Of a stretch of 64,000 bases of DNA, positions 40,460-56,866 are shown one piece after another (within the stretch, counting starts at the first letter, position 1; every line of letters starts with the position of its first letter). The stretch is taken from IMG/VR virus record IMGVR_UViG_3300042507_005574. One strand, given 5' to 3'. The translations under genes were made by a program, and so were the position numbers. The notes under the pieces are model-generated. The model was not told the DNA's origin, did not search any database, and worked only from the letters and a program-made list of their open reading frames with translations. Source of the stretch: a virus.

Positions 40460-41674
40460 ATGCTGTCATTTACACAATACAATCATGAGATAATCCAAGA
40501 GGAAACTGCTAGAAATAAACACTTGGATCATATCGAAGATTTGATGATCCTTTACGGACAAAAGGGATTAGATGACTCAATAGCATTCCTCAAGGATATA
40601 ATCGAAAGCCTAAAAACCGGAAATACTAGTTTGGGAGTTTCCACCAAATGGGATGGGAAGCCTGCAATCATTTGTGGCGAAAACCCTGATAATGGTAAAT
40701 TCTTCGTATCGACAAAGTCTGTTTTCGGTGCTAAAGAGCAAAAAGCATATCATACGGAGGCTGAACTTAAAAAATCTGGATTGCCTTCTGATTTGATTGA
40801 TAAGATGGCAGTGTGTTTGAAAATGCTTACTAAGGTTGGTATTGGCAAGAGAATTTTGCAAGGCGATTTGATGTTTACTGCCGATATGAAAAAGGCAGTA
40901 AATATCGATGGTAAGCCACATATAGGATTTCAGCCAAACACAATCATGTACGCTGTTCCAAAGAATAGTGATATTGGGTCGGCAATCTCTTCAGCAAAAT
41001 TAGGAATCGCATTTCATACTGAATATAAGGGAGACAGTCTGAAGTCTATTCAGGCAGTATCTTATAATTTCAATTCCAAGGTTTTAAAACAAACAAGTGA
41101 GGTTTGGGTAACAGATCCAAACATCTACGATCTCTCTCCTGCCCTTATGAAGGGCGGCGAATCAGAGATGGCAATCAGGATGCTCAAGGAATGCGAAGCC
41201 CTAGCATCTAAAGTGAGGCCGTTTATCAAGACTCTAATCGCACAGAAAGAGATAGCAGAAACTTATTTACTGCCTTATGTCAATAGTACAATCAATGGCG
41301 GAATGAGCAATTTCAATGCATCCAGTCTCAAACTAAACATCAAAGGTAAGTTTGAAAAGGACATAAATAAACTAAAAACCGACAAAGCCAAGCAAGCAAA
41401 AACTGAATTAATGCAGAAGCAATTAGATTTCGTTGATGCGTATTCAAAGCAGATCGATCAAATGTTTGAACTTCACAATAAAATTGCCAACATCAAAGAA
41501 ATTCTTTTGCGTAAACTGTATGCCATTTCAACCCTAGGTCATTTCTTCATGGATGAGAATGGAATTCGCCCAACAAATCCTGAAGGTATTGTAATCTATC
41601 GATCAGGATCGGTGATTAAACTAGTTAATCGTTTAGAATTTAGTAAACAAAACCGAATGGTGAATCAGAGGTAA
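40460..41674 (+). CDS. DUF6267-like protein with ATP-dependent ligase-type motifs
   Basis: NKHLDHIED, KWDG (motif I-like), QGD, EGIV (motif IV-like), KLV; N-terminus MLSFTQY...IQE. Confidence 0.7.
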   Translation: MLSFTQYNHEIIQEETARNKHLDHIEDLMILYGQKGLDDSIAFLKDIIESLKTGNTSLGVSTKWDGKPAIICGENPDNGKFFVSTKSVFGAKEQKAYHTEAELKKSGLPSDLIDKMAVCLKMLTKVGIGKRILQGDLMFTADMKKAVNIDGKPHIGFQPNTIMYAVPKNSDIGSAISSAKLGIAFHTEYKGDSLKSIQAVSYNFNSKVLKQTSEVWVTDPNIYDLSPALMKGGESEMAIRMLKECEALASKVRPFIKTLIAQKEIAETYLLPYVNSTINGGMSNFNASSLKLNIKGKFEKDINKLKTDKAKQAKTELMQKQLDFVDAYSKQIDQMFELHNKIANIKEILLRKLYAISTLGHFFMDENGIRPTNPEGIVIYRSGSVIKLVNRLEFSKQNRMVNQR

Positions 41675-41675
41675 A

Positions 41676-44600
41676 ATGCTTAACTTCTCAGACCGCAATA
41701 ATCAGATTGATGAAGCGAAAAAAGATAGTGTAGTTTTTGCATTCGGTAGAATGAACCCACCAACTATCGGCCATAAGGTAGTTGTGGATAAAGTTCTAAG
41801 TGAAGCCGCAGCAAAGGGAGCAGATCATTTTATCTTTGTGTCTAAAACTCAGGACACCAAAAAAAATCCACTCAGTCAAAAGTCAAAGATCGATTATCTG
41901 AAGAAGTTGTTTCCGAAGGTTAAGTTTCCTTTTGGTAAATCGACAAATCCATTCGATACTGTTTTGTATCTCTGTGAACTAGGATATAAAAACATCTATG
42001 TGGTCACAGGAAGTGATCATGTTGCAGAATACAACCGTATTAAGGAATACAAAGGTAAAGTAGCGACAAACGATCCAAAAAAGCGGTCGTACTCATTTGA
42101 TAATCTTGAGGTCATAGTTGCAGGCAAGGCAAGAGTTAAAGTTACTCTTGATATGATAGATGATATGCTCAAGAAGGGTCAACAAGTTGATCCTATGTAC
42201 ATGTCTGCATCTCTTATGCGTGAAGCGGCATTTAAGGACCGATTTGATATATTCTCAATCGGCATTCCTGGAAATAAAACTCTTGCACAGAGTTTATGGA
42301 AAGATGTTCGTAAAGGTATGAGTTTGAAAGAGGACTTTGATCTTTTAAATGAGGCAACCAAAAAAGAGGATGTGACAATCATCGCTCTCACATCATCAGA
42401 AAAAGATTTGAGTGATACCATAGAAAAAACTGAAGCGATCTGCAAAAGGCGTAAGATAAAATTCTATCCTGTAAAAACAAGCAAAGCACAGGTAGAAATA
42501 TCAAATGTCGCTTCGAAGAAGATTACTATAAAGAACTACGATGGAGAGGGAAAAGATGTAACCATCGTTCCAGAGAACACAGTTGCAATCGTTCGTGGTG
42601 GTGTGATGAACACCGAAATTGGTGTAGCCATTATGACGATCTTACAGAATAATGGTGTGTTCATGGTAAACGAAAGAGCGGGTATGGAACTGTGTGCCAA
42701 TAAGTTGGAAACGGCTATCGCACTCAAGAAACACGGTTTGCCTCACCCACGCACGGCTTTCGTCGCAAATGAAGAGAATATCGAATCGGCTGTCAAGGAA
42801 GTCGGAGGTAAGTTTCCGATCATCTGTAAGACCCTTACAGGCGCAGAAGGAATCGGTGTGTCCAAAATTGAGAGCATGGAAAGTCTCAAGTCTGTGCTAC
42901 AGACATTATGGAAGTATGGTGCAGAGATCATCATCCAAGAGTTTCTTCCTGAATTCAAGAATGATGTTCGTAGCATAGTACTCAACGGGAAGATATTTGC
43001 ATGTGCCAAAAGAGACAAAGCACCTAAAGACTTCCGAACCAATATTGCCCGTGGCTCTAAGGGCGGATCACATCAATTGTCTGACGAAGAGATTAAACTA
43101 GTTGAGCAAGCCGCACGGGTCAGTAAATGTTTCTATGTTGGTATAGACCATGTTATCAACGATGGTAAGCCATACATCATTGAAATGAACGCAAGTCCAG
43201 GTAGTGGAAATATCTATTATCGTTACTATGAGGATGGCGAAGGTAAAGATAATGTTAAAGGTGAAGAACTTGTAGAAGACTTTGTGGAATACATTCTCAA
43301 CAAGGCACATTGGAAACTATTTTCGAATCTTGCTGTTCGTGAGAATGTTAAGGTCGATGGCAATGAATATACCGCAAAGATCGATACTGGAAATAGCGGT
43401 TACAATATGATTCATGCCGACAACATAAAAGATAATGGTGACCACACCGTTTCATTTAAGTTAGCAGACGGTAAGAAGATTACGAAGAAGATTGTCAGCA
43501 GAATCAAAGTTAAGAGTGGCATCGGGGAGAAAGAAAGAATTGTGGTTTTCATGGACATTGAGTTCCATGGTAAGAGATATCCGAACATCAAATTCAGCCT
43601 TGGTGACAGAAACCATATGTCAACCAAGGTTCTTCTTGGACTGAGATTCCTTGAGAAGACTGGCTATGTTGTTGATCCAGCAAACGCAATATATCCACAA
43701 CCAGATGTCAAGAAAAAAACATCAGGGGAAGAGGAAGAAGAAGAGGAACTATCTGAAAGTATCATTCCTAAAGGCAAAGCAAATATTGCGGGTGCCTTAT
43801 TTAAAGTGATGACCACTAAAGAAATGGTTGGGAAAATATTTGAACTATCCAAACTGTGGAAATCCAACTCAGTTGAGTTCAAGAAAAAACTACAGGATCT
43901 TGAGACAGAAATAGTGATTGACTACAATAAGTCTTTAGAAACGGGAGCAAAAACTGCTTTTTTTGTAGATAGATTCAAGTTACAGAGCATCATTGATAGG
44001 ATTTTGTATAAAATGCTTGATGTCGCTGGTGTAGATTTACAGACATATGTGGCTAAATTGTCTTCAGTATTTGGATCTCAATTAACCATGGGATATTCAA
44101 TCGACGGAGAATCAATACAAGAAGCCGATATTACTAAGGGGAAAAAATTCTACACGAAGAGTGGAAAGATTAAGGCATCCCCAAAAGATAAAAAGACTGG
44201 ATTGCCAAAGAAGTATGTCTCTGGATTATCGAAGCGAGAGGCTGAACTTCGAAAGAAGAGACTTGCAAAGCGTAAGGATATGTCAGATGACGATCCGAAG
44301 ACTTGGGAGTTTGTTAATCCTAGAGAAAAGAATATCAAGACTAAACCTTCGAAATATACGACTGCTTTCAAGAAACTTGCCAAAAAAGGTAAATTGAAGG
44401 TAGAAAACAAAAATGAAATAAGAGAGTCTCTTTCTGCTATTAAGGCATTTGAGAATCTTGATTATATGACGAGAATGAACAGAGCCATAATGCTTGAGCA
44501 AAAGGCGATTCAAAACGGTAAAACAGATTCCGCAAAAATTTACCGATCATTTATAGAATATGAAAAGGACTTAAGATATAGAAATTACAAAGTTGATTTA

Positions 44601-45389
44601 GATATATCTGAAGAAATAGAATCTCTTCTTTATGAGGTGAGTCCTCCATCTGGTCCTGCTCGTCGCTTTTCAAAGAAGGAAAAAATTAAAAAGCAGTTTC
44701 AGAAGAGATACGGTAAAGACTGGAAAAGAGTTTTCTACGCTACAGCATGGAAGATGCACGGAGAGGAAGTAGAGTCCACCCGATGGCTTAATGAATCGAA
44801 GAAGATCAATGCAACCATGCAATGGACTGCTATCGGTAAGAGGGGACCTCTTCTGATCGGCTCTGACGAAATCGTCAAGACCTACAAGAAAGACACCCCT
44901 GGTGAGCGGGAGCGATTGGGTGAAGATAAGCCTTGTTGGGTAGGGTTTAAACAATTGGGAATGAAGACAAAGAATGGAAAAAAAGTTCCTAATTGTGTGC
45001 CTGTGAAGGAAGATACTTCTGAAGAAGAGAAGTCTGCGCTTTACAAAGAGTGGCAGAAATTAGTGAATATGTCCGGCAAAGAAATACAAAGTTTTCTTGA
45101 CTCAGAAGAGGGTAAAGAGGCAGGACTATCACGAAAAGAAGCAGGCAAGGCAGGAGCAGATGGGGGTAAAATTACAAGTGGAAGAGATTCTGCCCGGGCC
45201 ATTATTCGTATGCTTGATACTCCCAAAGAGGACTGGACGGCAAATGATTGGAAATGGGCGAGTAAGCAAGTCAGTTTCATCAGTAGAATGCAAGGTGTGA
45301 AGGGCGGTATGAGGGATGAGAAAGGTCATCCAACCCGAAAACTTCTTGCTCTGAAAGTTTGGGGTCATAATCCGGAGAGGAAATCATGA
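41676..45389 (+). CDS. 1237-aa multi-module protein: HIGH-type nucleotidyltransferase, RimK-like ATP-grasp ligase, RimK-associated retropepsin-like protease, small basic modules, DUF3140-like C-terminus
   Basis: FGRMNPPTIGH; NKLET...IIQEF...FRTNIARG...GID...IEMNASPG; AKIDTG...LLG; WQKLVNM...LKVWGHNP. Confidence 0.85.
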   Translation: MLNFSDRNNQIDEAKKDSVVFAFGRMNPPTIGHKVVVDKVLSEAAAKGADHFIFVSKTQDTKKNPLSQKSKIDYLKKLFPKVKFPFGKSTNPFDTVLYLCELGYKNIYVVTGSDHVAEYNRIKEYKGKVATNDPKKRSYSFDNLEVIVAGKARVKVTLDMIDDMLKKGQQVDPMYMSASLMREAAFKDRFDIFSIGIPGNKTLAQSLWKDVRKGMSLKEDFDLLNEATKKEDVTIIALTSSEKDLSDTIEKTEAICKRRKIKFYPVKTSKAQVEISNVASKKITIKNYDGEGKDVTIVPENTVAIVRGGVMNTEIGVAIMTILQNNGVFMVNERAGMELCANKLETAIALKKHGLPHPRTAFVANEENIESAVKEVGGKFPIICKTLTGAEGIGVSKIESMESLKSVLQTLWKYGAEIIIQEFLPEFKNDVRSIVLNGKIFACAKRDKAPKDFRTNIARGSKGGSHQLSDEEIKLVEQAARVSKCFYVGIDHVINDGKPYIIEMNASPGSGNIYYRYYEDGEGKDNVKGEELVEDFVEYILNKAHWKLFSNLAVRENVKVDGNEYTAKIDTGNSGYNMIHADNIKDNGDHTVSFKLADGKKITKKIVSRIKVKSGIGEKERIVVFMDIEFHGKRYPNIKFSLGDRNHMSTKVLLGLRFLEKTGYVVDPANAIYPQPDVKKKTSGEEEEEEELSESIIPKGKANIAGALFKVMTTKEMVGKIFELSKLWKSNSVEFKKKLQDLETEIVIDYNKSLETGAKTAFFVDRFKLQSIIDRILYKMLDVAGVDLQTYVAKLSSVFGSQLTMGYSIDGESIQEADITKGKKFYTKSGKIKASPKDKKTGLPKKYVSGLSKREAELRKKRLAKRKDMSDDDPKTWEFVNPREKNIKTKPSKYTTAFKKLAKKGKLKVENKNEIRESLSAIKAFENLDYMTRMNRAIMLEQKAIQNGKTDSAKIYRSFIEYEKDLRYRNYKVDLDISEEIESLLYEVSPPSGPARRFSKKEKIKKQFQKRYGKDWKRVFYATAWKMHGEEVESTRWLNESKKINATMQWTAIGKRGPLLIGSDEIVKTYKKDTPGERERLGEDKPCWVGFKQLGMKTKNGKKVPNCVPVKEDTSEEEKSALYKEWQKLVNMSGKEIQSFLDSEEGKEAGLSRKEAGKAGADGGKITSGRDSARAIIRMLDTPKEDWTANDWKWASKQVSFISRMQGVKGGMRDEKGHPTRKLLALKVWGHNPERKS

Positions 45390-45646
45390 AATATTACGAC
45401 AACCTAATTAAAAACATTAATGAGGCAAGAATTGCTGGATTGGAAAAGAAATCAAAACAAAGTGGAATTTCTTATGGAATTTTGAAACAAGTATTCGATA
45501 GAGGCATGGCTGCATGGAAAAGTGGACATAGACCTGGAACAACGCCTCAACAATGGGCTTTTGCCAGAGTTAATTCATTTATTGTTGGCGGCAAAACTCG
45601 TAGAACCGCAGATAAAGATTTGTGGAAAAAAGCAAAGGGCGGCTAA
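45386..45646 (+). CDS. DUF5824-like small basic protein
   Basis: KQSGISYGILKQVFDRGMAAWKSGHRPGTTPQQWAFARVNSF; N-terminus ...NINE-A. Confidence 0.75.
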   Translation: MKYYDNLIKNINEARIAGLEKKSKQSGISYGILKQVFDRGMAAWKSGHRPGTTPQQWAFARVNSFIVGGKTRRTADKDLWKKAKGG

Positions 45647-45684: not shown

Positions 45685-47337
45685 ATGGCAGTATTCTATT
45701 GGGTCGGCGGATATACAGGTTATACAGGTCCAGAAAGTGGATATAACACAACAGGTTCATATTGGACTAACTATGTTACGGGACTAACCACCTCGTATGG
45801 AGATGTATTTTATTCACCGTATGCATGGGATATTCGTCAAAACTGGAGGTTGGAGCACACTGGCCAACAACAACCTACTGATCCTGAAATTAGAGTGATT
45901 AGAGATTCAGTACCAACGAGATTACCTAAGGGTGGTGATGATGTCATCATAGGTGGAGTTGCTGCATATATTGGAACCGGACCTTATGGTGGGGGCAGCA
46001 CATCCTCAGGTGGAGCGTCTGGCGGTGGATCGGGACAGTTCTTAAGTTCACCATTAATATTTACGCCGAATATTGCACCGAATAATTTTTCACTTTTATT
46101 CGGAGGAATGTCTGGTGATGGAATCACCTCTGCCGGATTAACCGCTTGGAAAGAAGGCGGATCAACTAAACTGGCTTCATTTACAGTTAAACCATATTTC
46201 ACAAGACTTGATAAAACCATTAATTTTGGAGCATCTGGCAGCAGTATATCAATAAGAACGGGAGAGATTGGAAGTTGGGGACTCTCTTATTTGTGGGGAA
46301 ATTCAGTCCCTTCAGATTTTACTGGTGCCGCTCTTGGTAGAGCATTGACTCTTGTTAGTAATCCGATAAACTTAATTTTGGCTGATACTAACAACAACTG
46401 TTTTGTAAACAGATTACAATCTTCAAGAAGTGCAACGGGTGGAGCAGTTATTCATATCAAATCTATGAATTATGATGCTGGTTTTACTTCTGTAAGTTTT
46501 AATATGCACGGTAGATTTGGAGCAGGTTATACTGCTTCAGTTTGGGGGACAAATGAAACTTCTGCAATCAACCACTACTTAGTGCCAAGAGGAGAATGGG
46601 ACAGAGTATTGAATGATTGTGCAAATACAGAAATGAGTAATGTGGTCTGTAATTTTGTGAGGCACGGTGGATTCAGTTGGGATCGAGCGACGGGGTATTT
46701 CTCATCAGACAGAACTGCAAATATCAATGAATTTTTCATTTCATCAACTACAATAAATGGATCGAATAATAAAACTGGTGTTAATATAGAATGTTATGAA
46801 CAGGCGGCAGTTGGAAAGATTCTTGCTATAGGTTGGAGAAATCAAAGCCCAACTAACTGTATGACAATAGGAAATCTCGGTGGAATACCGTCAACAGTGA
46901 ATCAACTGTTAACTGTCTATACTGGAATCGGTATTTCAGGAAATCCTTATTTCGATTATCAATTTCCGCTAAACGCATGGAAAGAATCATATCCTTGGAG
47001 CATCAGTAATTGGTGGACTGGACCAATAGTAATGATAAGAAACTGTTTTGTGGAAGATCTAATTCATGGTGGTGGAGTGATCTTAGCAGATCCAAATTCG
47101 TCTGCGAATGATTATGTCATTCTGAAAGATGGCTTTATGGATTATCCGGCTCAAATAATATGCAAGAATTTTGAAAATCCTCAATGGAAAAATTTCTTAC
47201 TTGGATATTCCCCCAACTCAGACCTGGGAATTGGTGTAAGAACAAGAAATATTTCAAGTTCTTATTTAAACACTTACGCTAAACGGTATTTCATGATTCC
47301 GTATGATGGTCAAGGAACAACTATAACTAGAGACTGA
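45685..47337 (+). CDS. putative virion fibre or structural protein
   Basis: Late promoter upstream; FYWVGG start; G/T/S/N-rich. Confidence 0.65.
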   Translation: MAVFYWVGGYTGYTGPESGYNTTGSYWTNYVTGLTTSYGDVFYSPYAWDIRQNWRLEHTGQQQPTDPEIRVIRDSVPTRLPKGGDDVIIGGVAAYIGTGPYGGGSTSSGGASGGGSGQFLSSPLIFTPNIAPNNFSLLFGGMSGDGITSAGLTAWKEGGSTKLASFTVKPYFTRLDKTINFGASGSSISIRTGEIGSWGLSYLWGNSVPSDFTGAALGRALTLVSNPINLILADTNNNCFVNRLQSSRSATGGAVIHIKSMNYDAGFTSVSFNMHGRFGAGYTASVWGTNETSAINHYLVPRGEWDRVLNDCANTEMSNVVCNFVRHGGFSWDRATGYFSSDRTANINEFFISSTTINGSNNKTGVNIECYEQAAVGKILAIGWRNQSPTNCMTIGNLGGIPSTVNQLLTVYTGIGISGNPYFDYQFPLNAWKESYPWSISNWWTGPIVMIRNCFVEDLIHGGGVILADPNSSANDYVILKDGFMDYPAQIICKNFENPQWKNFLLGYSPNSDLGIGVRTRNISSSYLNTYAKRYFMIPYDGQGTTITRD

Positions 47338-47383: not shown

Positions 47384-49045
47384 ATGAACTACTACTGGGT
47401 TGGTGGACACACAGGATACACAGGTGCAAATAGTGGTTATAGTGGAGGGCTTTGGTTTAAACCCGGTTCAGTAACTGGCGGAATCACAGCCGGAGATCTA
47501 TACTTCGGACCTTATTCATGGGGTGTTGTAGAAAACTGGAGAGTCATTGAAATAAGTGATGCCATATCAGGTCTTGCTATTTATGGGATTCCAACGCAAC
47601 TGCCGCAGGGAGGTGATGATTCGGCATTCTTTGGAAAAGTTGTAAATGCTTACACTATTTCTGGAGATTCTACTGGAAGTTCTATACTAAATCCCCACAT
47701 GTATTCTTGCTTATATGGAGGTATGTCTGGAGATGGATTTACTGCATCTTCGGCAACTGGATGGGCAGGAAACAACGGAGCAGCAAGATTTCAGCCAATT
47801 GATATAAGAGTAGACAAATCATTTATTCCAGGAAGCACAACGGGTCTTCTTTTAACTGATTTAGGGAGAATAGGTGCGATTGGAATCACATCAGATAATC
47901 CTCTTCGGGTTTATCCTGGAAATACTGTTATATTTGAAAAGGCATCTGAAACTGTTGGTGCCAACATTTCTCTGAGAAGTATGTTCACTTCTAAGAGTGT
48001 TATTCAGAGTTATTCTAATGATTCTAGACTAAATCCATCTGTGGCACTTGCTTCGGATGGATCTCCTGATAATCCCGTAGTCAGTTTGGGAAGAAAATTA
48101 AAAGTAGACTTAAAGGGCGGATGGTCAAGAGTTCGCCAAGATGCAGGAACTCTAGTATTAGGACAGATGTTTACAACAAATCTTCCCGGTTATCCAGATG
48201 CGTTCGGAATAACATGGGCAAATCAACCAGCCAGTGTATTGGTTGATGGAAAAATTAGAAAATTCCTTGCTAAAGAAGATAGCAGCGTTCACTACTATAT
48301 GATTAAACCGGGATCTGTGCTTGAAGGTGTTGAGATTATTGGCAGATCTTCATTCCCTCTATCTGCAACTCATGGTCCTAATCCATCGATCATTAGAGTT
48401 TCAGGGTGGGCCGGTATGTCCGAACCTCTTTCTTCTACTGGTGGCTCAGGTAATGTAGGAACTCGTCCGCAAAATGGTATAATTTTAGGTAAAATTCCCA
48501 CAACCAACGGTCTGACTGCTGGATTACCTTTCTACATTGAAGATCTTCATATAGATAATTTCCTTAATAGTTCAGTTTTCGGAGGAACGCATCCGCCGAA
48601 TGTTTGGCTTGCAAATACTGAAATTAAAGAGTTTAAGGGAGTGGCGGGAAGAGCAATCCCCCTGACAAATGACCCCTATAACACTCCGAATAGAGTTCGC
48701 ATTAAGAATGGATTCTTGATGAATGGGTTTACTCTTGAAACTTCTGATGCATATATTGGTGCCCAAGATGGTCTTGTGAGTTTGGTAGTGGGTATCACAA
48801 ATACTTCAGGATTTAGCGGTGCCTACGCAACTGGAGTGGCTTCGAACATTGGACTCACGACAATAAGTGGTTCAATTTATGGTCTAAGATACGATAATGT
48901 ATCTCCTTTTGGAACTCAAGGTTTTCCTCCTGTTTGCACGATAACATATCCATCCTTCTTTGATGAAGGAATCATTGGGGCAACTGCATATGTCAGAACT
49001 TGGAATACAACATCACTTCAAAGACCCGCAAGTGATCCTGATTAA
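47384..49045 (+). CDS. putative virion protein, paralog of 45685..47337
   Basis: Shared YWVGGxTGYTG, NWR, LPxGGDD, GGMSGDG motifs. Confidence 0.65.
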   Translation: MNYYWVGGHTGYTGANSGYSGGLWFKPGSVTGGITAGDLYFGPYSWGVVENWRVIEISDAISGLAIYGIPTQLPQGGDDSAFFGKVVNAYTISGDSTGSSILNPHMYSCLYGGMSGDGFTASSATGWAGNNGAARFQPIDIRVDKSFIPGSTTGLLLTDLGRIGAIGITSDNPLRVYPGNTVIFEKASETVGANISLRSMFTSKSVIQSYSNDSRLNPSVALASDGSPDNPVVSLGRKLKVDLKGGWSRVRQDAGTLVLGQMFTTNLPGYPDAFGITWANQPASVLVDGKIRKFLAKEDSSVHYYMIKPGSVLEGVEIIGRSSFPLSATHGPNPSIIRVSGWAGMSEPLSSTGGSGNVGTRPQNGIILGKIPTTNGLTAGLPFYIEDLHIDNFLNSSVFGGTHPPNVWLANTEIKEFKGVAGRAIPLTNDPYNTPNRVRIKNGFLMNGFTLETSDAYIGAQDGLVSLVVGITNTSGFSGAYATGVASNIGLTTISGSIYGLRYDNVSPFGTQGFPPVCTITYPSFFDEGIIGATAYVRTWNTTSLQRPASDPD

Positions 49046-49074: not shown

Positions 49075-49929
49075 ATGTTTACAAACCCTCACAATCAAAA
49101 TCTTCTCAATGATGTTATGCGTGTTCTCAGTGGAGAAACGACAGAAACTCCAATTAAGCCAGTTCCTCAGTGGATATCAGAAGCAGCGAAGAAGGCTGCT
49201 GCTGAAATTAAAGATGTCTTAAGTGAGGGTGTGGTTGTGACTAGCGAGAGCAGAAGAGATATTCTTCGGAAGAACCTATCCGAAGCACTTGATACTTGCA
49301 ATTGCTCTGTAAACACCGAAACTTCATTGCAATTTGAAGAAGAAGTTAGAAAACTTGAAAATCAAATTACAGAAGCCAAGCAAGCATCTGCTGGACAGAT
49401 TCTTGATATGTTAGAAAAGTCCTACAAGCAAAATGGACTTGATTCTATTCTTCTTGGATGGAAAGAACTAGGGCTTTCAGAGCCAATAAGAGTTGGAGAA
49501 GTACTAGAAGATTTCAAGTCTATATTTGAACCAAAGGATCAAAAGTCCGCTGCTGCCGATATTAAGAGTTGGCTAAAGCCAAATGATTACAACAAATATA
49601 AGAAGATGATGGAAGGTGTTGAAATCACTTTGAATGACGATGAAGTTGAATTGGATGAAATGGTGCCGGGATCGAAGACCGATAAGAGAGGAAATAAATC
49701 CGCAGCGTCAAAACTTCGTAAAGACAGATTGGCTAAGATCCGCAAAGAGAAGGAAGATATCAAGAGAGCCGAATTGGTGAGAATATTAAAAGCCCAAGGT
49801 GTATTGCCTACTAAAAAGGAAGAGGCTGAAGGAATCAATGAAATGGTTGACGGCCTTCTTGAATTTGTATCGAAATTGTCTGATGAAGAAGTGTCGGTGC
49901 TTCGCACAATCATTGACGAAACTAACTAA
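49075..49929 (+). CDS. acidic helical late protein, possible internal head or scaffold protein
   Basis: TAAATA upstream; many (L/I)xE sites (LSE-G, ITE-A, LDE-M, INE-M). Confidence 0.6.
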   Translation: MFTNPHNQNLLNDVMRVLSGETTETPIKPVPQWISEAAKKAAAEIKDVLSEGVVVTSESRRDILRKNLSEALDTCNCSVNTETSLQFEEEVRKLENQITEAKQASAGQILDMLEKSYKQNGLDSILLGWKELGLSEPIRVGEVLEDFKSIFEPKDQKSAAADIKSWLKPNDYNKYKKMMEGVEITLNDDEVELDEMVPGSKTDKRGNKSAASKLRKDRLAKIRKEKEDIKRAELVRILKAQGVLPTKKEEAEGINEMVDGLLEFVSKLSDEEVSVLRTIIDETN

Positions 49930-49952
49930 ATACCACAAAGTGGAGAAAATAA

Positions 49953-51077
49953 ATGTCGCACTGGAATAACAACGATAGAGAAGAATCAAAACCATCATGG
50001 CTCACACCAGCCCAAAAAATCAACTGCGTGAGAACATCAAAGGGATGGGAAGTTCCTCTTAATGGAACGAATGTTGGTGGAAGTCCCGATGGATTGAAGA
50101 ATCTCACCGGTCCTAGTCTTACGAGCCAAACATTCAACACCGAACTTTTAGTTTGCATGCCTAACGATGTGGTTTATGACCCGAACATTGTTGTTGCATT
50201 GACAGGTCCGATGACCATGTTCCACTTCGGTTCATCAGCAACAGGATTCTCCCTGACAGGTAATACAATTTACTATTACAATCCAGAAGCGAACTATGCA
50301 GGTGGAAGTACATCGGGTGTCGCTGCAATCGGGGTTATTGTGGCTGCAACTGCCGCTGCCGGTGCATACAATGTCCAACTCAAAGGATTCCAAAATCCCC
50401 CTAGACCGGTTCTTAGTGGTCCCCGTGATATAAACTCAACAGGAATTATGCATCCTGCTGGAGTTACTAGTGCAACTGCATCAGTTTCCTCTGTAGTGCA
50501 AATTATTGACAATGTGTTCTCAACTAGTTCACTCTATACTGGTAGAATTGCGGTGACTGGCGGATTGGATACAACCGTTGATCTTCCTAACTATGCCCCA
50601 TATATCACATGCCCATTTACCGGAGACTCAGCAACTGTTGGGGGCATCGACGGCAGAGGGGTTTCTTTCGGCACTAGTTTAACGGGAAGCGGCGGCGCAC
50701 AAGGATACTATGGAGTAGGTGCTTTTGGAAACTCCACTTTGAATTTCCCGGGGGCAACCGCTTATATCAAGATTGTTGCCAACGACAGTAACTTCACCAA
50801 TAACATTTCATTCTCAATAGTTTCAAGCACTCCTGCATTTGGAAATACAACATTGCTTGTTACAGGCTCAAGCCTTTTGACATCGACAAATGTTCCTACA
50901 GGAGTTTATGAAACATTCTTCGGACCTACCGCATCGATAAACAACAACATTGCTGTTCTCAGAATTAACAAGCCTGGTGCAACTGCAAACACGACTCGTA
51001 CAGTTGTTGTTCGTGCAAATGACGGTACGGTCGATGCTGATTCGACATTTACAATTTCATTTGGCGCAACTGCCTGA
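49953..51077 (+). CDS. virion structural protein
   Basis: MSHW...D...SKPSWL...GW...ELLV N-terminus typical of T4-like virion proteins; TG-rich. Confidence 0.65.
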   Translation: MSHWNNNDREESKPSWLTPAQKINCVRTSKGWEVPLNGTNVGGSPDGLKNLTGPSLTSQTFNTELLVCMPNDVVYDPNIVVALTGPMTMFHFGSSATGFSLTGNTIYYYNPEANYAGGSTSGVAAIGVIVAATAAAGAYNVQLKGFQNPPRPVLSGPRDINSTGIMHPAGVTSATASVSSVVQIIDNVFSTSSLYTGRIAVTGGLDTTVDLPNYAPYITCPFTGDSATVGGIDGRGVSFGTSLTGSGGAQGYYGVGAFGNSTLNFPGATAYIKIVANDSNFTNNISFSIVSSTPAFGNTTLLVTGSSLLTSTNVPTGVYETFFGPTASINNNIAVLRINKPGATANTTRTVVVRANDGTVDADSTFTISFGATA

Positions 51078-51088
51078 TAGGATTTATT

Positions 51089-51565
51089 ATGCGTAAATTC
51101 AAGGAACTCAGAAAAACGATTTCAGAAACATCAACTGGTCTTGATATTTCTGGAATTAATCGTCCTAGAGTTGGTCCTATGGATAGTGATAATGGAATAG
51201 ATTTCAACCAAAATCTTTCACAACTAAACCCATCGGAAGTTGATAGAATTAACATGTTTTTAGGTGCTTTGTCGGCAAAACCTTATCTTGATCCGAATCA
51301 GGCAATCAAGGAAGCACAAAGTAAATTGTCAACTGTTGGACTTCAATTCAACCTTAGCAATAATGATGATTTGAGAAAGAGTGGAGAAAGAATTTACCCA
51401 CTAAGTTTGTTTGGCGGATCATTCGGATCTGATGGTAAAACCTATGGCACATCAACTGACGATAACATTGAGCGTAAAATTGGATATAAGTTAGGATTAA
51501 TGGTAACATCTGTTCCGACATCAACAGGCATGACGAGTCTCAAAGCAGAAATAATGCCCATGTGA
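51089..51565 (+). CDS. hypothetical protein with CTS-like N-terminus
   Basis: MRKFKELRKTISE. Confidence 0.65.
   Translation: MRKFKELRKTISETSTGLDISGINRPRVGPMDSDNGIDFNQNLSQLNPSEVDRINMFLGALSAKPYLDPNQAIKEAQSKLSTVGLQFNLSNNDDLRKSGERIYPLSLFGGSFGSDGKTYGTSTDDNIERKIGYKLGLMVTSVPTSTGMTSLKAEIMPM

Positions 51566-54865: not shown

Positions 54866-56866
<2,001 letters not shown>

Follow-up and report, generated by a model that had tools for sequence, protein, structure and literature searches.

We analysed a 64,000-nucleotide stretch of viral DNA (IMG/VR record IMGVR_UViG_3300042507_005574; the whole stretch is called the window below) and focused on one large gene at 41676-45389 on the + strand. This open reading frame (ORF) has 1237 codons without a stop and encodes a 140-kDa chain. 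It is the middle of three tightly packed genes (40460-41674, 41676-45389 and 45386-45646). The phage is T4-like, with a gp43-type DNA polymerase, clamp loader, UvsX, DnaB-like helicase, primase and thymidylate synthase, followed by tail-fibre-like genes. When 12 kb of the window was compared with isolated phages by megablast, no match was seen. In IMG/VR, the 1237-residue protein has relatives at 94, 89, 80, 69 and 64% identity, and a wider search yielded at least 298 related proteins of about 760-1330 residues on contigs of up to 182 kb. The N-terminal 55% is common to these relatives, while the C-terminal part varies. A preliminary description of this gene had proposed a polyprotein, in which one targeting tag would load about eight separate proteins into the head, to be released during maturation by a T4 gp21-type prohead protease that cuts after Glu at [LIV]xE sites.

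Pfam and PHROG searches and AlphaFold2 models resolved the protein into at least eight modules, including three enzymes (Table 1). The modules named in the preliminary description (a HIGH-type nucleotidyltransferase, RimK, a protease, a helical module, small basic modules, a unit with a Pro-Cys-Trp motif, and a DUF3140-like domain) were all borne out.

Table 1. Features of the 1237-residue protein and of the two adjoining genes (window coordinates; aa, residues of the 1237-residue protein; pLDDT, predicted local distance difference test score).
Feature	Position	Strand	Evidence or remark
Upstream gene, 404 residues, own tag-like leader	40460..41674	+	phrog_455 profile positions 10-333
Capsid-targeting-sequence-like leader, aa 1-13, ends I-D-E then Ala	41676..41714	+	disordered in model
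HIGH-motif cytidylyltransferase-like nucleotidyltransferase, aa 14-226	41715..42353	+	phrog_3041 3e-42, phrog_395 1e-28
RimK-type ATP-grasp alpha-L-glutamate ligase, aa 227 to ~545	42354..43310	+	Pfam RimK 3.2e-30
RimB-like retropepsin-type aspartic peptidase, aa ~550-672	43323..43691	+	PF05618, 37.8 bits vs cut-off 27
Acidic linker, 7-Glu run at aa 685-691 (nt 43728-43748), then L-S-E and Ser	43695..43757	+	pLDDT 30-45
Helical module, aa 695-816, ends I-Q-E then Ala	43758..44123	+	helices pLDDT 73-88; disordered 798-823
Basic module A, aa 817-987, ends L-Y-E then Val	44124..44636	+	weak DUF5824 match (844-907)
Two small basic modules, aa 988-1040 and 1041-1083	44637..44924	+	L-N-E/Ser between them, L-G-E/Asp at end
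29-residue two-Cys mini-module, aa 1084-1112, ends V-K-E then Asp	44925..45011	+	phrog_9737
DUF3140 C-terminal module, aa 1113-1237	45012..45386	+	Pfam 33.1 bits vs cut-off 25; pLDDT 84-92
Downstream gene, 86 residues, own tag-like leader	45386..45646	+	phrog_3041 profile positions 607-677, E 1.5e-12

The nucleotidyltransferase was modelled with a pLDDT of about 90, and its Gly32, His33 and Arg182 were invariant among 39 family sequences. The Pfam CTP_transf_like model matched it weakly (16 bits vs a cut-off of 21), and a profile search of its family against PDB sequences gave weak matches only, to PPAT, NMNAT and MJ0951. Searches of PDB chain sequences returned only noise or weak superfamily matches, whether the query was the nucleotidyltransferase by itself, its family profile or a profile of the C-terminal half. 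The ATP-grasp module scored 105.6 bits with Pfam RimK (cut-off 21), and its best Foldseek matches were the RimK structures 7qys, 5zct and 5zk6, with a template modelling (TM) score, relative to the target, of 0.81; Glu503 and Asn505 were invariant in the same 39 sequences. The peptidase that follows was modelled as an all-beta domain (pLDDT 70-93), with Asp570, Thr571 and Gly572 invariant across the family. Pfam labels PF05618 as 'Zn_protease', but the actual family is that of the RimB retropepsin-like aspartic peptidases. It was the only peptidase in the Pfam scan of the 1237-residue protein, which found no zincin-like (MPTase) peptidase. As the motif residues are invariant, all three enzyme modules look active, a prediction that applies to the nucleotidyltransferase, the RimK ligase and the RimB-like peptidase alike.

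Towards the C-terminus, basic module A has an isoelectric point of 9.9 and a net charge of +19. The two small basic modules contain a helix at 995-1029 (pLDDT 82-88) and are otherwise of low confidence. A DUF6321 match after DUF3140 stayed below threshold (24.7 bits vs a cut-off of 28.5). Foldseek, with the C-terminal half searched as a whole against PDB, found nothing at E <= 0.001, and a wide VIA-align search of the same half returned generic helical bundles only (Z <= 8.2). In BFVD, a fold search with this half found DUF6321 proteins and one weak match to a haloarchaeal virus 'prohead protease' fusion. The latter (L7TGJ3 of Halorubrum sodomense tailed virus 2, 386 residues) was the best viral fold match, at E 1.4e-3 over 123 columns; if it is real, a DUF3140-like module is joined to a head protease in an archaeal virus.

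We examined the leader against the T4 capsid-targeting sequence, a stretch of ten residues in which targeting depends on positions 4 and 7 and processing on positions 8 and 10 (PMC9026906, PMC8442874). The leader has Phe4 and I-D-E at 11-13, with a three-residue insertion relative to the T4 tag, and its layout is that of the T4 IPIII tag (quoted in PMC8442874); N-termini across the family adhere closely to the T4 pattern. In the 39 aligned rows, P3 was I or L in 32, P1 was Glu in 31 and P1' was Ala in 26 (P1 being the residue before the proposed cut). Two counts of relatives retaining [LIVM]xE in the leader gave 31 of 37 and 32 of 38, when about 6 (5.6 for the 38) were expected, which agrees with the targeting tag claimed earlier. 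A tag-like pattern was also seen at 9 of the 79 ORF starts in the window (2.3 expected from internal Met positions, p = 4e-4), including those of the three consecutive genes at 40460, 41676 and 45386. The tag-like starts listed (3347, 3634, 4553, 40460, 41676, 45386, 51089 and 54866) mark candidates for further head cargo; the ORF at 54866 encodes a collagen-repeat tail-fibre-like protein.

The same tag is present on cyanophage homologues of the nucleotidyltransferase, namely Syn9 gp184, S-SZBM1_140 and S-CREM2 gp154, the last of which shows 31% identity to residues 19-230 (E 2e-19). Liquid chromatography-mass spectrometry of virions purified on caesium chloride revealed two of these cytidylyltransferases, that of S-SZBM1 (gene 140) and that of S-CREM2 (gp154) (PMC9146016, PMC10665884), and encapsidation is suggested by the S-CREM2 authors. 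Together, the leader and these homologues suggest that the 1237-residue protein is likely to be packaged into the head through its tag.

The eight proposed cleavage sites were all found where the preliminary description had placed them, in the stop-free frame. Their P1 Glu residues are 13, 226, 694, 816, 987, 1040, 1083 and 1112, with codons ending at nucleotides 41714, 42353, 43757, 44123, 44636, 44795, 44924 and 45011. To locate them on the structure, the two halves were modelled separately with AlphaFold2 from family alignments. The N-terminal half had a mean pLDDT of 79.6, and its only long low-confidence stretches were 1-14, 219-230 and 674-700. In the C-terminal half (mean pLDDT 67), confident blocks at 705-797, 825-885, 892-973, 995-1029 and 1114-1237 were separated by low-confidence stretches at 686-701, 798-823, about 974-990, 1030-1066 and 1068-1113. 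Eight of the eight sites lie inside low-confidence stretches, with 985-987 borderline (pLDDT 52-57). The linkers were the sole long stretches of low pLDDT in the chain. The predicted TM (pTM) scores were 0.49 and 0.30 for the N- and C-terminal halves although local confidence was high, consistent with a beads-on-a-string arrangement. The claims that the domains are independent, that the linkers between them are disordered and that the sites coincide with the module boundaries thus held in the models; the site at 987 may yet be part of a fold.

We then estimated how far this placement could arise by chance. Across the whole protein, [LIV]xE matches 26 times where composition predicts 19.9, which is no overall enrichment. 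The 179 linker residues hold nine of these matches and the folded parts the other 17, giving densities of 5.0 and 1.6 per 100 residues, respectively. All seven linkers contain at least one match. The joint probability of this was 0.0026 when residues were shuffled inside each linker, and such occupancy was reached in 5 of 20,000 whole-protein shuffles. Since the linkers were drawn after the model was seen, the P values serve only as a guide.

Stronger evidence came from comparison of the motif in up to 38 relatives, mostly below 85% identity (the seven linkers being numbered L0 to L6). Beyond the leader, L0, whose counts are given above, the relatives bearing the motif numbered 35 of 38 in L1 (shuffle expectation 13.3), 29 of 36 in L2 (21.5), 30 of 33 in L3 (18.9), 33 of 36 in L4 (20.0), 33 of 37 in L5 (24.5) and 35 of 37 in L6 (8.5). 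The alignment columns of every linker showed L, I, V or M at P3, a variable P2 and Glu at P1, often followed by Ala or Ser at P1'. Glu1083 was invariant (38/38), with L or I at its P3 position in 36 of the 38. A conserved P3, a free P2 and a conserved P1 are the signature of a recognition site rather than of a structural element. As judged from the alignments, the linker pattern matches the published T4 gp21 motif, L/I-x-E, as the earlier assignment of the sites to the gp21 type had it.

A protease of the required kind was found in the same lineage. The 119.7-kb contig (G002) of the 80%-identical relative encodes a Peptidase_S77 protein (L020:11228-11875; E 4e-38) between the portal and scaffold genes, so the cognate gp21-type protease that had been presumed has a candidate. 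The major capsid protein on this contig has L-K-E followed by Ala-Ala at residue 47, matching the T4 gp23 maturation cut in both place and kind. T4 gp21 itself needs scarcely more than an accessible L/I-x-E, and in T4 an Asp at P1 prevents processing while targeting persists (PMC9026906). We also observed that the gp22-like scaffold protein of G002 (L020:11910-13022) has an 8-Glu run followed by L-A-S-E, in close likeness to the window's acidic linker after the RimB-like domain.

This acidic linker bears on a second protease. Its 7-Glu run, directly after the RimB-like domain, is the sole run of four or more Glu in the 1237-residue protein, and in most relatives having this linker type 4-9 Glu are followed by [LIM]xE. 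RimB, a retropepsin-like endopeptidase, acts on stretches of at least six Glu, including an internal 8-Glu linker, both in vitro and in vivo, and a RimB-RimK hybrid is also active (PMC11957791). Since RimB cuts such runs and this one adjoins a RimB-like domain, self-cleavage at the 7-Glu junction is a serious possibility; the RimB-like peptidase could itself cut the tract, alone or together with gp21, a route that the preliminary description had left out of account.

When we examined the modules in other proteins, they were found shuffled, inserted as cassettes, or alone behind tags of their own; whether they occur as stand-alone or reshuffled units had been named as a check of the polyprotein idea. 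The 29-residue two-Cys unit is a clean insertion, absent from six aligned relatives, and it carries its own V-K-E. At least 70 other, otherwise unrelated proteins (among P0269-P0371) contain the same unit, ~21 residues long (Cys-Trp-x-Gly-Tyr ... Pro-Asn-Cys), with 60-100% identity. Portal proteins (PF04860) bear as many as three copies in tandem, and in small proteins the unit directly follows a tag-like leader. It was also seen with Zeta-toxin-type P-loop, cytidylyltransferase, DUF5661 and SpoIID-like domains, and one source calls it a 'zinc ribbon'. The helical module is missing or replaced in three relatives (L012, P0004 and P0005). Homology breakpoints cluster at residues 660-700, 810-829 and 1060-1119. 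At the start of the basic module (817), [LIV]xE then Ala stands directly before it whether the upstream neighbour is the helical module or an acidic linker.

A group of 430-residue proteins on IMG/VR contigs (L014-L018) consists of the tag, the nucleotidyltransferase and a P-loop module (Gly-Pro-Gly-Ser-Gly-Lys-Thr), with an L-I-T-E junction. This arrangement recalls NadR (nicotinamide mononucleotide adenylyltransferase plus kinase) and hints at nucleotidyltransferase chemistry related to nicotinamide adenine dinucleotide (NAD). The DUF3140 module has 2250 relatives, at any position in proteins of 142-3108 residues, and in representative proteins it co-occurs with ART-PolyVal, DUF5661, DUF5824 and DUF6496.

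Two sets of proteins were not counted as evidence for separate modules. The 38% relative on a 145-kb contig (L013, IMGVR_UViG_3300045125_000034) could be read as split genes; this was rejected, as there are many frameshifts in all frames, a pattern typical of an uncorrected long-read assembly, so the apparent split is taken to be an artefact of assembly. Two short proteins that seem to stand alone, P0003 and P0006, begin at or near proposed sites and are possibly truncated calls on short contigs.

Other observations concern the variable part of the family and the DUF3140 module in other lineages. In a 40%-identical subfamily (P0004 and P0261-P0264), an Asp-Gly-His-His-Arg region at residues ~780-1030 replaces the small basic modules. 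This motif is typical of ParB/sulfiredoxin-type domains, which are common in polyvalent proteins; no Pfam match was reported for the region. Outside the T4-like family (P0010-P0151), DUF3140 is flanked on both sides, in most other lineages, by a conserved aromatic-x-[DEKNQ]-Gly-Gly motif. The first Gly of the upstream copy lies 12-15 residues before a conserved Trp in 96 of 135 cases, and the downstream copy lies just past the module end. In 142 proteins, [DEKNQSA]GG occurred 1119 times against 345 expected. The window family has L/I-x-E at the spot upstream of DUF3140 where other lineages have the Gly-Gly motif, and the latter, going by these patterns, may punctuate polyvalent proteins for processing in a second, lineage-specific way. 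One protein of the Gly-Gly type had no head genes within 22 kb.

PHROG profile search placed the upstream gene product on phrog_455, positions 416-645 of which match the start of the 1237-residue protein, and in other phages the upstream-gene product is fused to the nucleotidyltransferase. The upstream protein has ~17 additional N-terminal residues, the tag-like leader, relative to Syn9 gp183 and S-SZBM1_141, which start at a conserved His-Leu-Glu-His region and contain a Lys-x-Asp-Gly motif, a feature typical of nucleotidyl-transferring ligases. The downstream 86-residue protein is the C-terminal domain of phrog_3041-type cytidylyltransferases, and it too is fused to the nucleotidyltransferase elsewhere. 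Further downstream lie two adjacent paralogues of ~550 residues (45685-47337 and 47384-49045) with similar Tyr-Trp-Val-Gly-Gly / Thr-Gly-Tyr-Thr-Gly starts and no PHROG match; four of the next five genes (49075-51565) likewise had no PHROG match. The T4 late-promoter consensus occurs twice in the window, fewer than expected by chance, so expression timing cannot be read from it.

Together, these results lead us to favour, with moderate confidence and on the strength of sequence comparison, a reading in which the 1237-residue protein is a capsid-packaged 'polyvalent' cargo of an uncultured T4-like phage that is cut up and injected. The 13-residue leader would act as a T4-type capsid-targeting sequence and draw the entire chain of 140 kDa into the prohead's scaffolding core. 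The activated gp21-type (Peptidase S77) protease would then remove the leader after Glu13, and would probably cut further at several or all of the linkers, after Glu226, 694, 816, 987, 1040, 1083 and 1112. The products would be a nucleotidyltransferase of 24 kDa, a RimK-RimB unit of 52 kDa, a helical module and a DUF3140 module of 14 kDa each, and several small basic modules. An additional cut by the RimB-like peptidase in the 7-Glu run is possible. The released products would remain with the DNA in the head and enter the host at infection. As each linker is disordered and carries a conserved L/I/V-x-E, we consider cutting at several internal linkers somewhat probable, whereas the use of all eight sites seems unlikely. 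The fuller proposal, that one tag loads eight cargo modules which the head-maturation protease frees, and that the linker punctuation is a lineage-matched code in polyvalent proteins, is a tentative one. Of the original idea of some eight proteins from one tagged chain, the tag, the modules and the linker motifs stood up to comparison with relatives, and homologues of the first module have been detected in virions; the figure of eight products was a guess.

Several points weigh against this reading. Packaging, every cleavage and host delivery are all things that we infer for the 1237-residue protein. Since the internal proteins of T4 receive a single cut, T4 offers no precedent for functional cargo being released at several sites, and fragments of 3-6 kDa might leave the prohead, as T4 propeptides do. 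Linkers L2, L4 and L5 are acidic, and a chance site arose in them in 72-84% of shuffles. Glu987, which is followed by a strictly conserved motif and by a helix of low confidence, may be structural. The relatives are phylogenetically linked, so the conservation counts are not independent. The S77 protease was read on the relative's contig, G002; the 64-kb window itself is without a head module. We also considered a RimK-peptidase homologue of phage YerA41, labelled 'structural protein', and treated it as weak virion support, since the same particle proteome lists many replication enzymes.

Some of these points would equally suit a protein that is packaged and loses its leader but otherwise stays intact as a ~138-kDa polyvalent protein, in the manner of T4 Alt or the virion RNA polymerase of N4, its linker motifs being kept for other reasons, for example as acidic flexible linkers or for docking to the scaffold. 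The single cut of T4 internal proteins and the frequency of chance motifs in the three acidic linkers would be expected in that case, and full-length transfer occurs for several polyvalent proteins (Iyer et al. 2017, PMC5512222). However, the P3/P2/P1 pattern is present in each of the seven linkers, even in L0, L1 and L6, which are not acidic and in which few sites are expected. As gp21 has few determinants beyond accessibility, a disordered L/I-x-E in the prohead should be cut unless it is selected against, and yet the motifs are conserved; we consider the intact chain rather unlikely. Self-processing is the other way in which the chain might be divided. The RimB-like retropepsin would cut the 7-Glu tract in cis or between copies, with or without gp21, and part the N-terminal enzyme block from the C-terminal modules, much as has been proposed for the embedded peptidases of polyvalent proteins and as in retroviral Gag-Pol. 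The activity of RimB and of the RimB-RimK hybrid on such runs, the invariant Asp570, Thr571 and Gly572, and the Glu run kept directly after the peptidase in most relatives with such a linker all speak for it. It would account for one junction only, however, as the other six linkers are without poly-Glu; subfamilies such as P0238-P0268 keep the peptidase without the Glu run, and first-module relatives that lack the peptidase still have L/I-x-E junctions. As a full account of the protein, it appears improbable.

A cytoplasmic role was also weighed, in which the protein would be a non-virion multifunctional enzyme (combining, for example, nucleotide/NAD-related chemistry with glutamylation) and the motifs would be incidental. 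The gene is surrounded by replication genes (helicase, primase, thymidylate synthase), no structural gene was identified near it, and cyanophage papers class the cytidylyltransferase as an auxiliary metabolic gene. Against this, the tag-like leader is conserved family-wide and is common to homologues found in virions, and partner modules occur in portal fusions and in polyvalent proteins. In T4, too, genes for internal proteins lie outside the head cluster. We consider such a role very improbable.

Among known systems, the proposed cargo invites comparison with the internal proteins IPI-III and Alt of T4. The leader is alike in its length (~10-13 residues), its aromatic residue at position 4 and its L/I-x-E end; the phage is T4-like, with an S77 prohead protease in the lineage, and delivery of cargo enzymes with the DNA, known for T4, is predicted here. 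Alt is an enzyme trimmed at both ends. In contrast to the single cut of the T4 internal proteins (PMC8442874), seven further conserved sites lie here between unrelated modules, and no T4 head protein resembles this one in its 140-kDa size or its nucleotidyltransferase/RimK/RimB-like/DUF3140 content. The cyanophage cytidylyltransferases (Syn9 gp184, S-SZBM1_140 and S-CREM2 gp154) share a homologous module (about 31-37% identity), the same tag-like N-terminus and the same helicase-to-primase neighbourhood, and two of the three were found in virions; they are, however, only 286-382 residues long, with one short C-terminal module in place of RimK-RimB and six further modules.

The polyvalent proteins (Iyer et al. 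2017, PMC5512222) likewise have many disparate domains, shuffling, predicted packaging and delivery, and an embedded peptidase. They are defined by 2-15 disparate domains in mosaic architectures, and the protein studied here has at least eight modules, which vary among its 298 or more relatives; signature domains of the class are represented through the co-occurrence of DUF3140 with ART-PolyVal, DUF5661, DUF5824 and DUF6496. The same paper draws an explicit analogy to the polyproteins of RNA viruses, proposes domain release by embedded zincin-like peptidases, and describes such a peptidase as common but not obligatory. A polyprotein strategy in a dsDNA phage is thus less new than the preliminary description implied. 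Unlike the present case, that paper has no DUF3140, RimK, cytidylyltransferase or prohead-protease motifs; here the head-maturation protease is predicted to do the processing, at motifs in the linkers, and the embedded peptidase belongs to the retropepsin type. Our literature search found no other paper that ties polyvalent proteins to prohead-protease cleavage. The protein studied here would be a polyvalent cargo of the T4 lineage with an unusual enzyme content, in which the maturation motif of that same lineage marks the linkers.

The inner-body and ejection proteins of phiKZ, 201phi2-1 and SPN3US are also cut after Glu by a gp21-related protease, sometimes at several places in one protein. 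Their motif, however, is S/A-x-E or A-x-E, the cuts remove long propeptides and not separate enzymes, and the lineage is another. RimK/RimB and the RimBK hybrid (PMC11957791) similarly pair an ATP-grasp glutamate ligase with a retropepsin-like poly-Glu peptidase, a specificity that is putative here; in the window the order, RimK then RimB, is the opposite, and the pair sits in a phage cargo chain with an encoded 7-Glu tract after it. If it is cut, the chain would also resemble the polyproteins of eukaryotic viruses (retroviral Gag-Pol, and pp220/pp62 of African swine fever virus), with one chain, one assembly signal and a viral protease in the immature particle. It differs from these in belonging to a bacterial dsDNA virus, in parts that are not homologous save for the retropepsin fold, and in a cleavage that is predicted from sequence.

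If the cuts occur, T4-like phages would have a modular cargo system, in which any cassette flanked by a three-residue motif could join a tagged chain and reach the host cell as soon as infection begins; this would explain the free shuffling of modules. The textbook role of gp21 would be widened from propeptide trimming to enzyme release, and the polyvalent-protein hypothesis would gain a concrete, testable processing mechanism, with the processing protease of each lineage defining how shuffled cargo cassettes are freed. In bacteria, the RimK-RimB pair writes and erases poly-glutamate on ribosomal protein S6. If injected, RimK-RimB and the nucleotidyltransferase would act before any phage gene is expressed. 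The cargo content of this family, which is large (at least 298 members) and unstudied, would then point to an immediate manipulation of host translation or of nucleotide/NAD metabolism.

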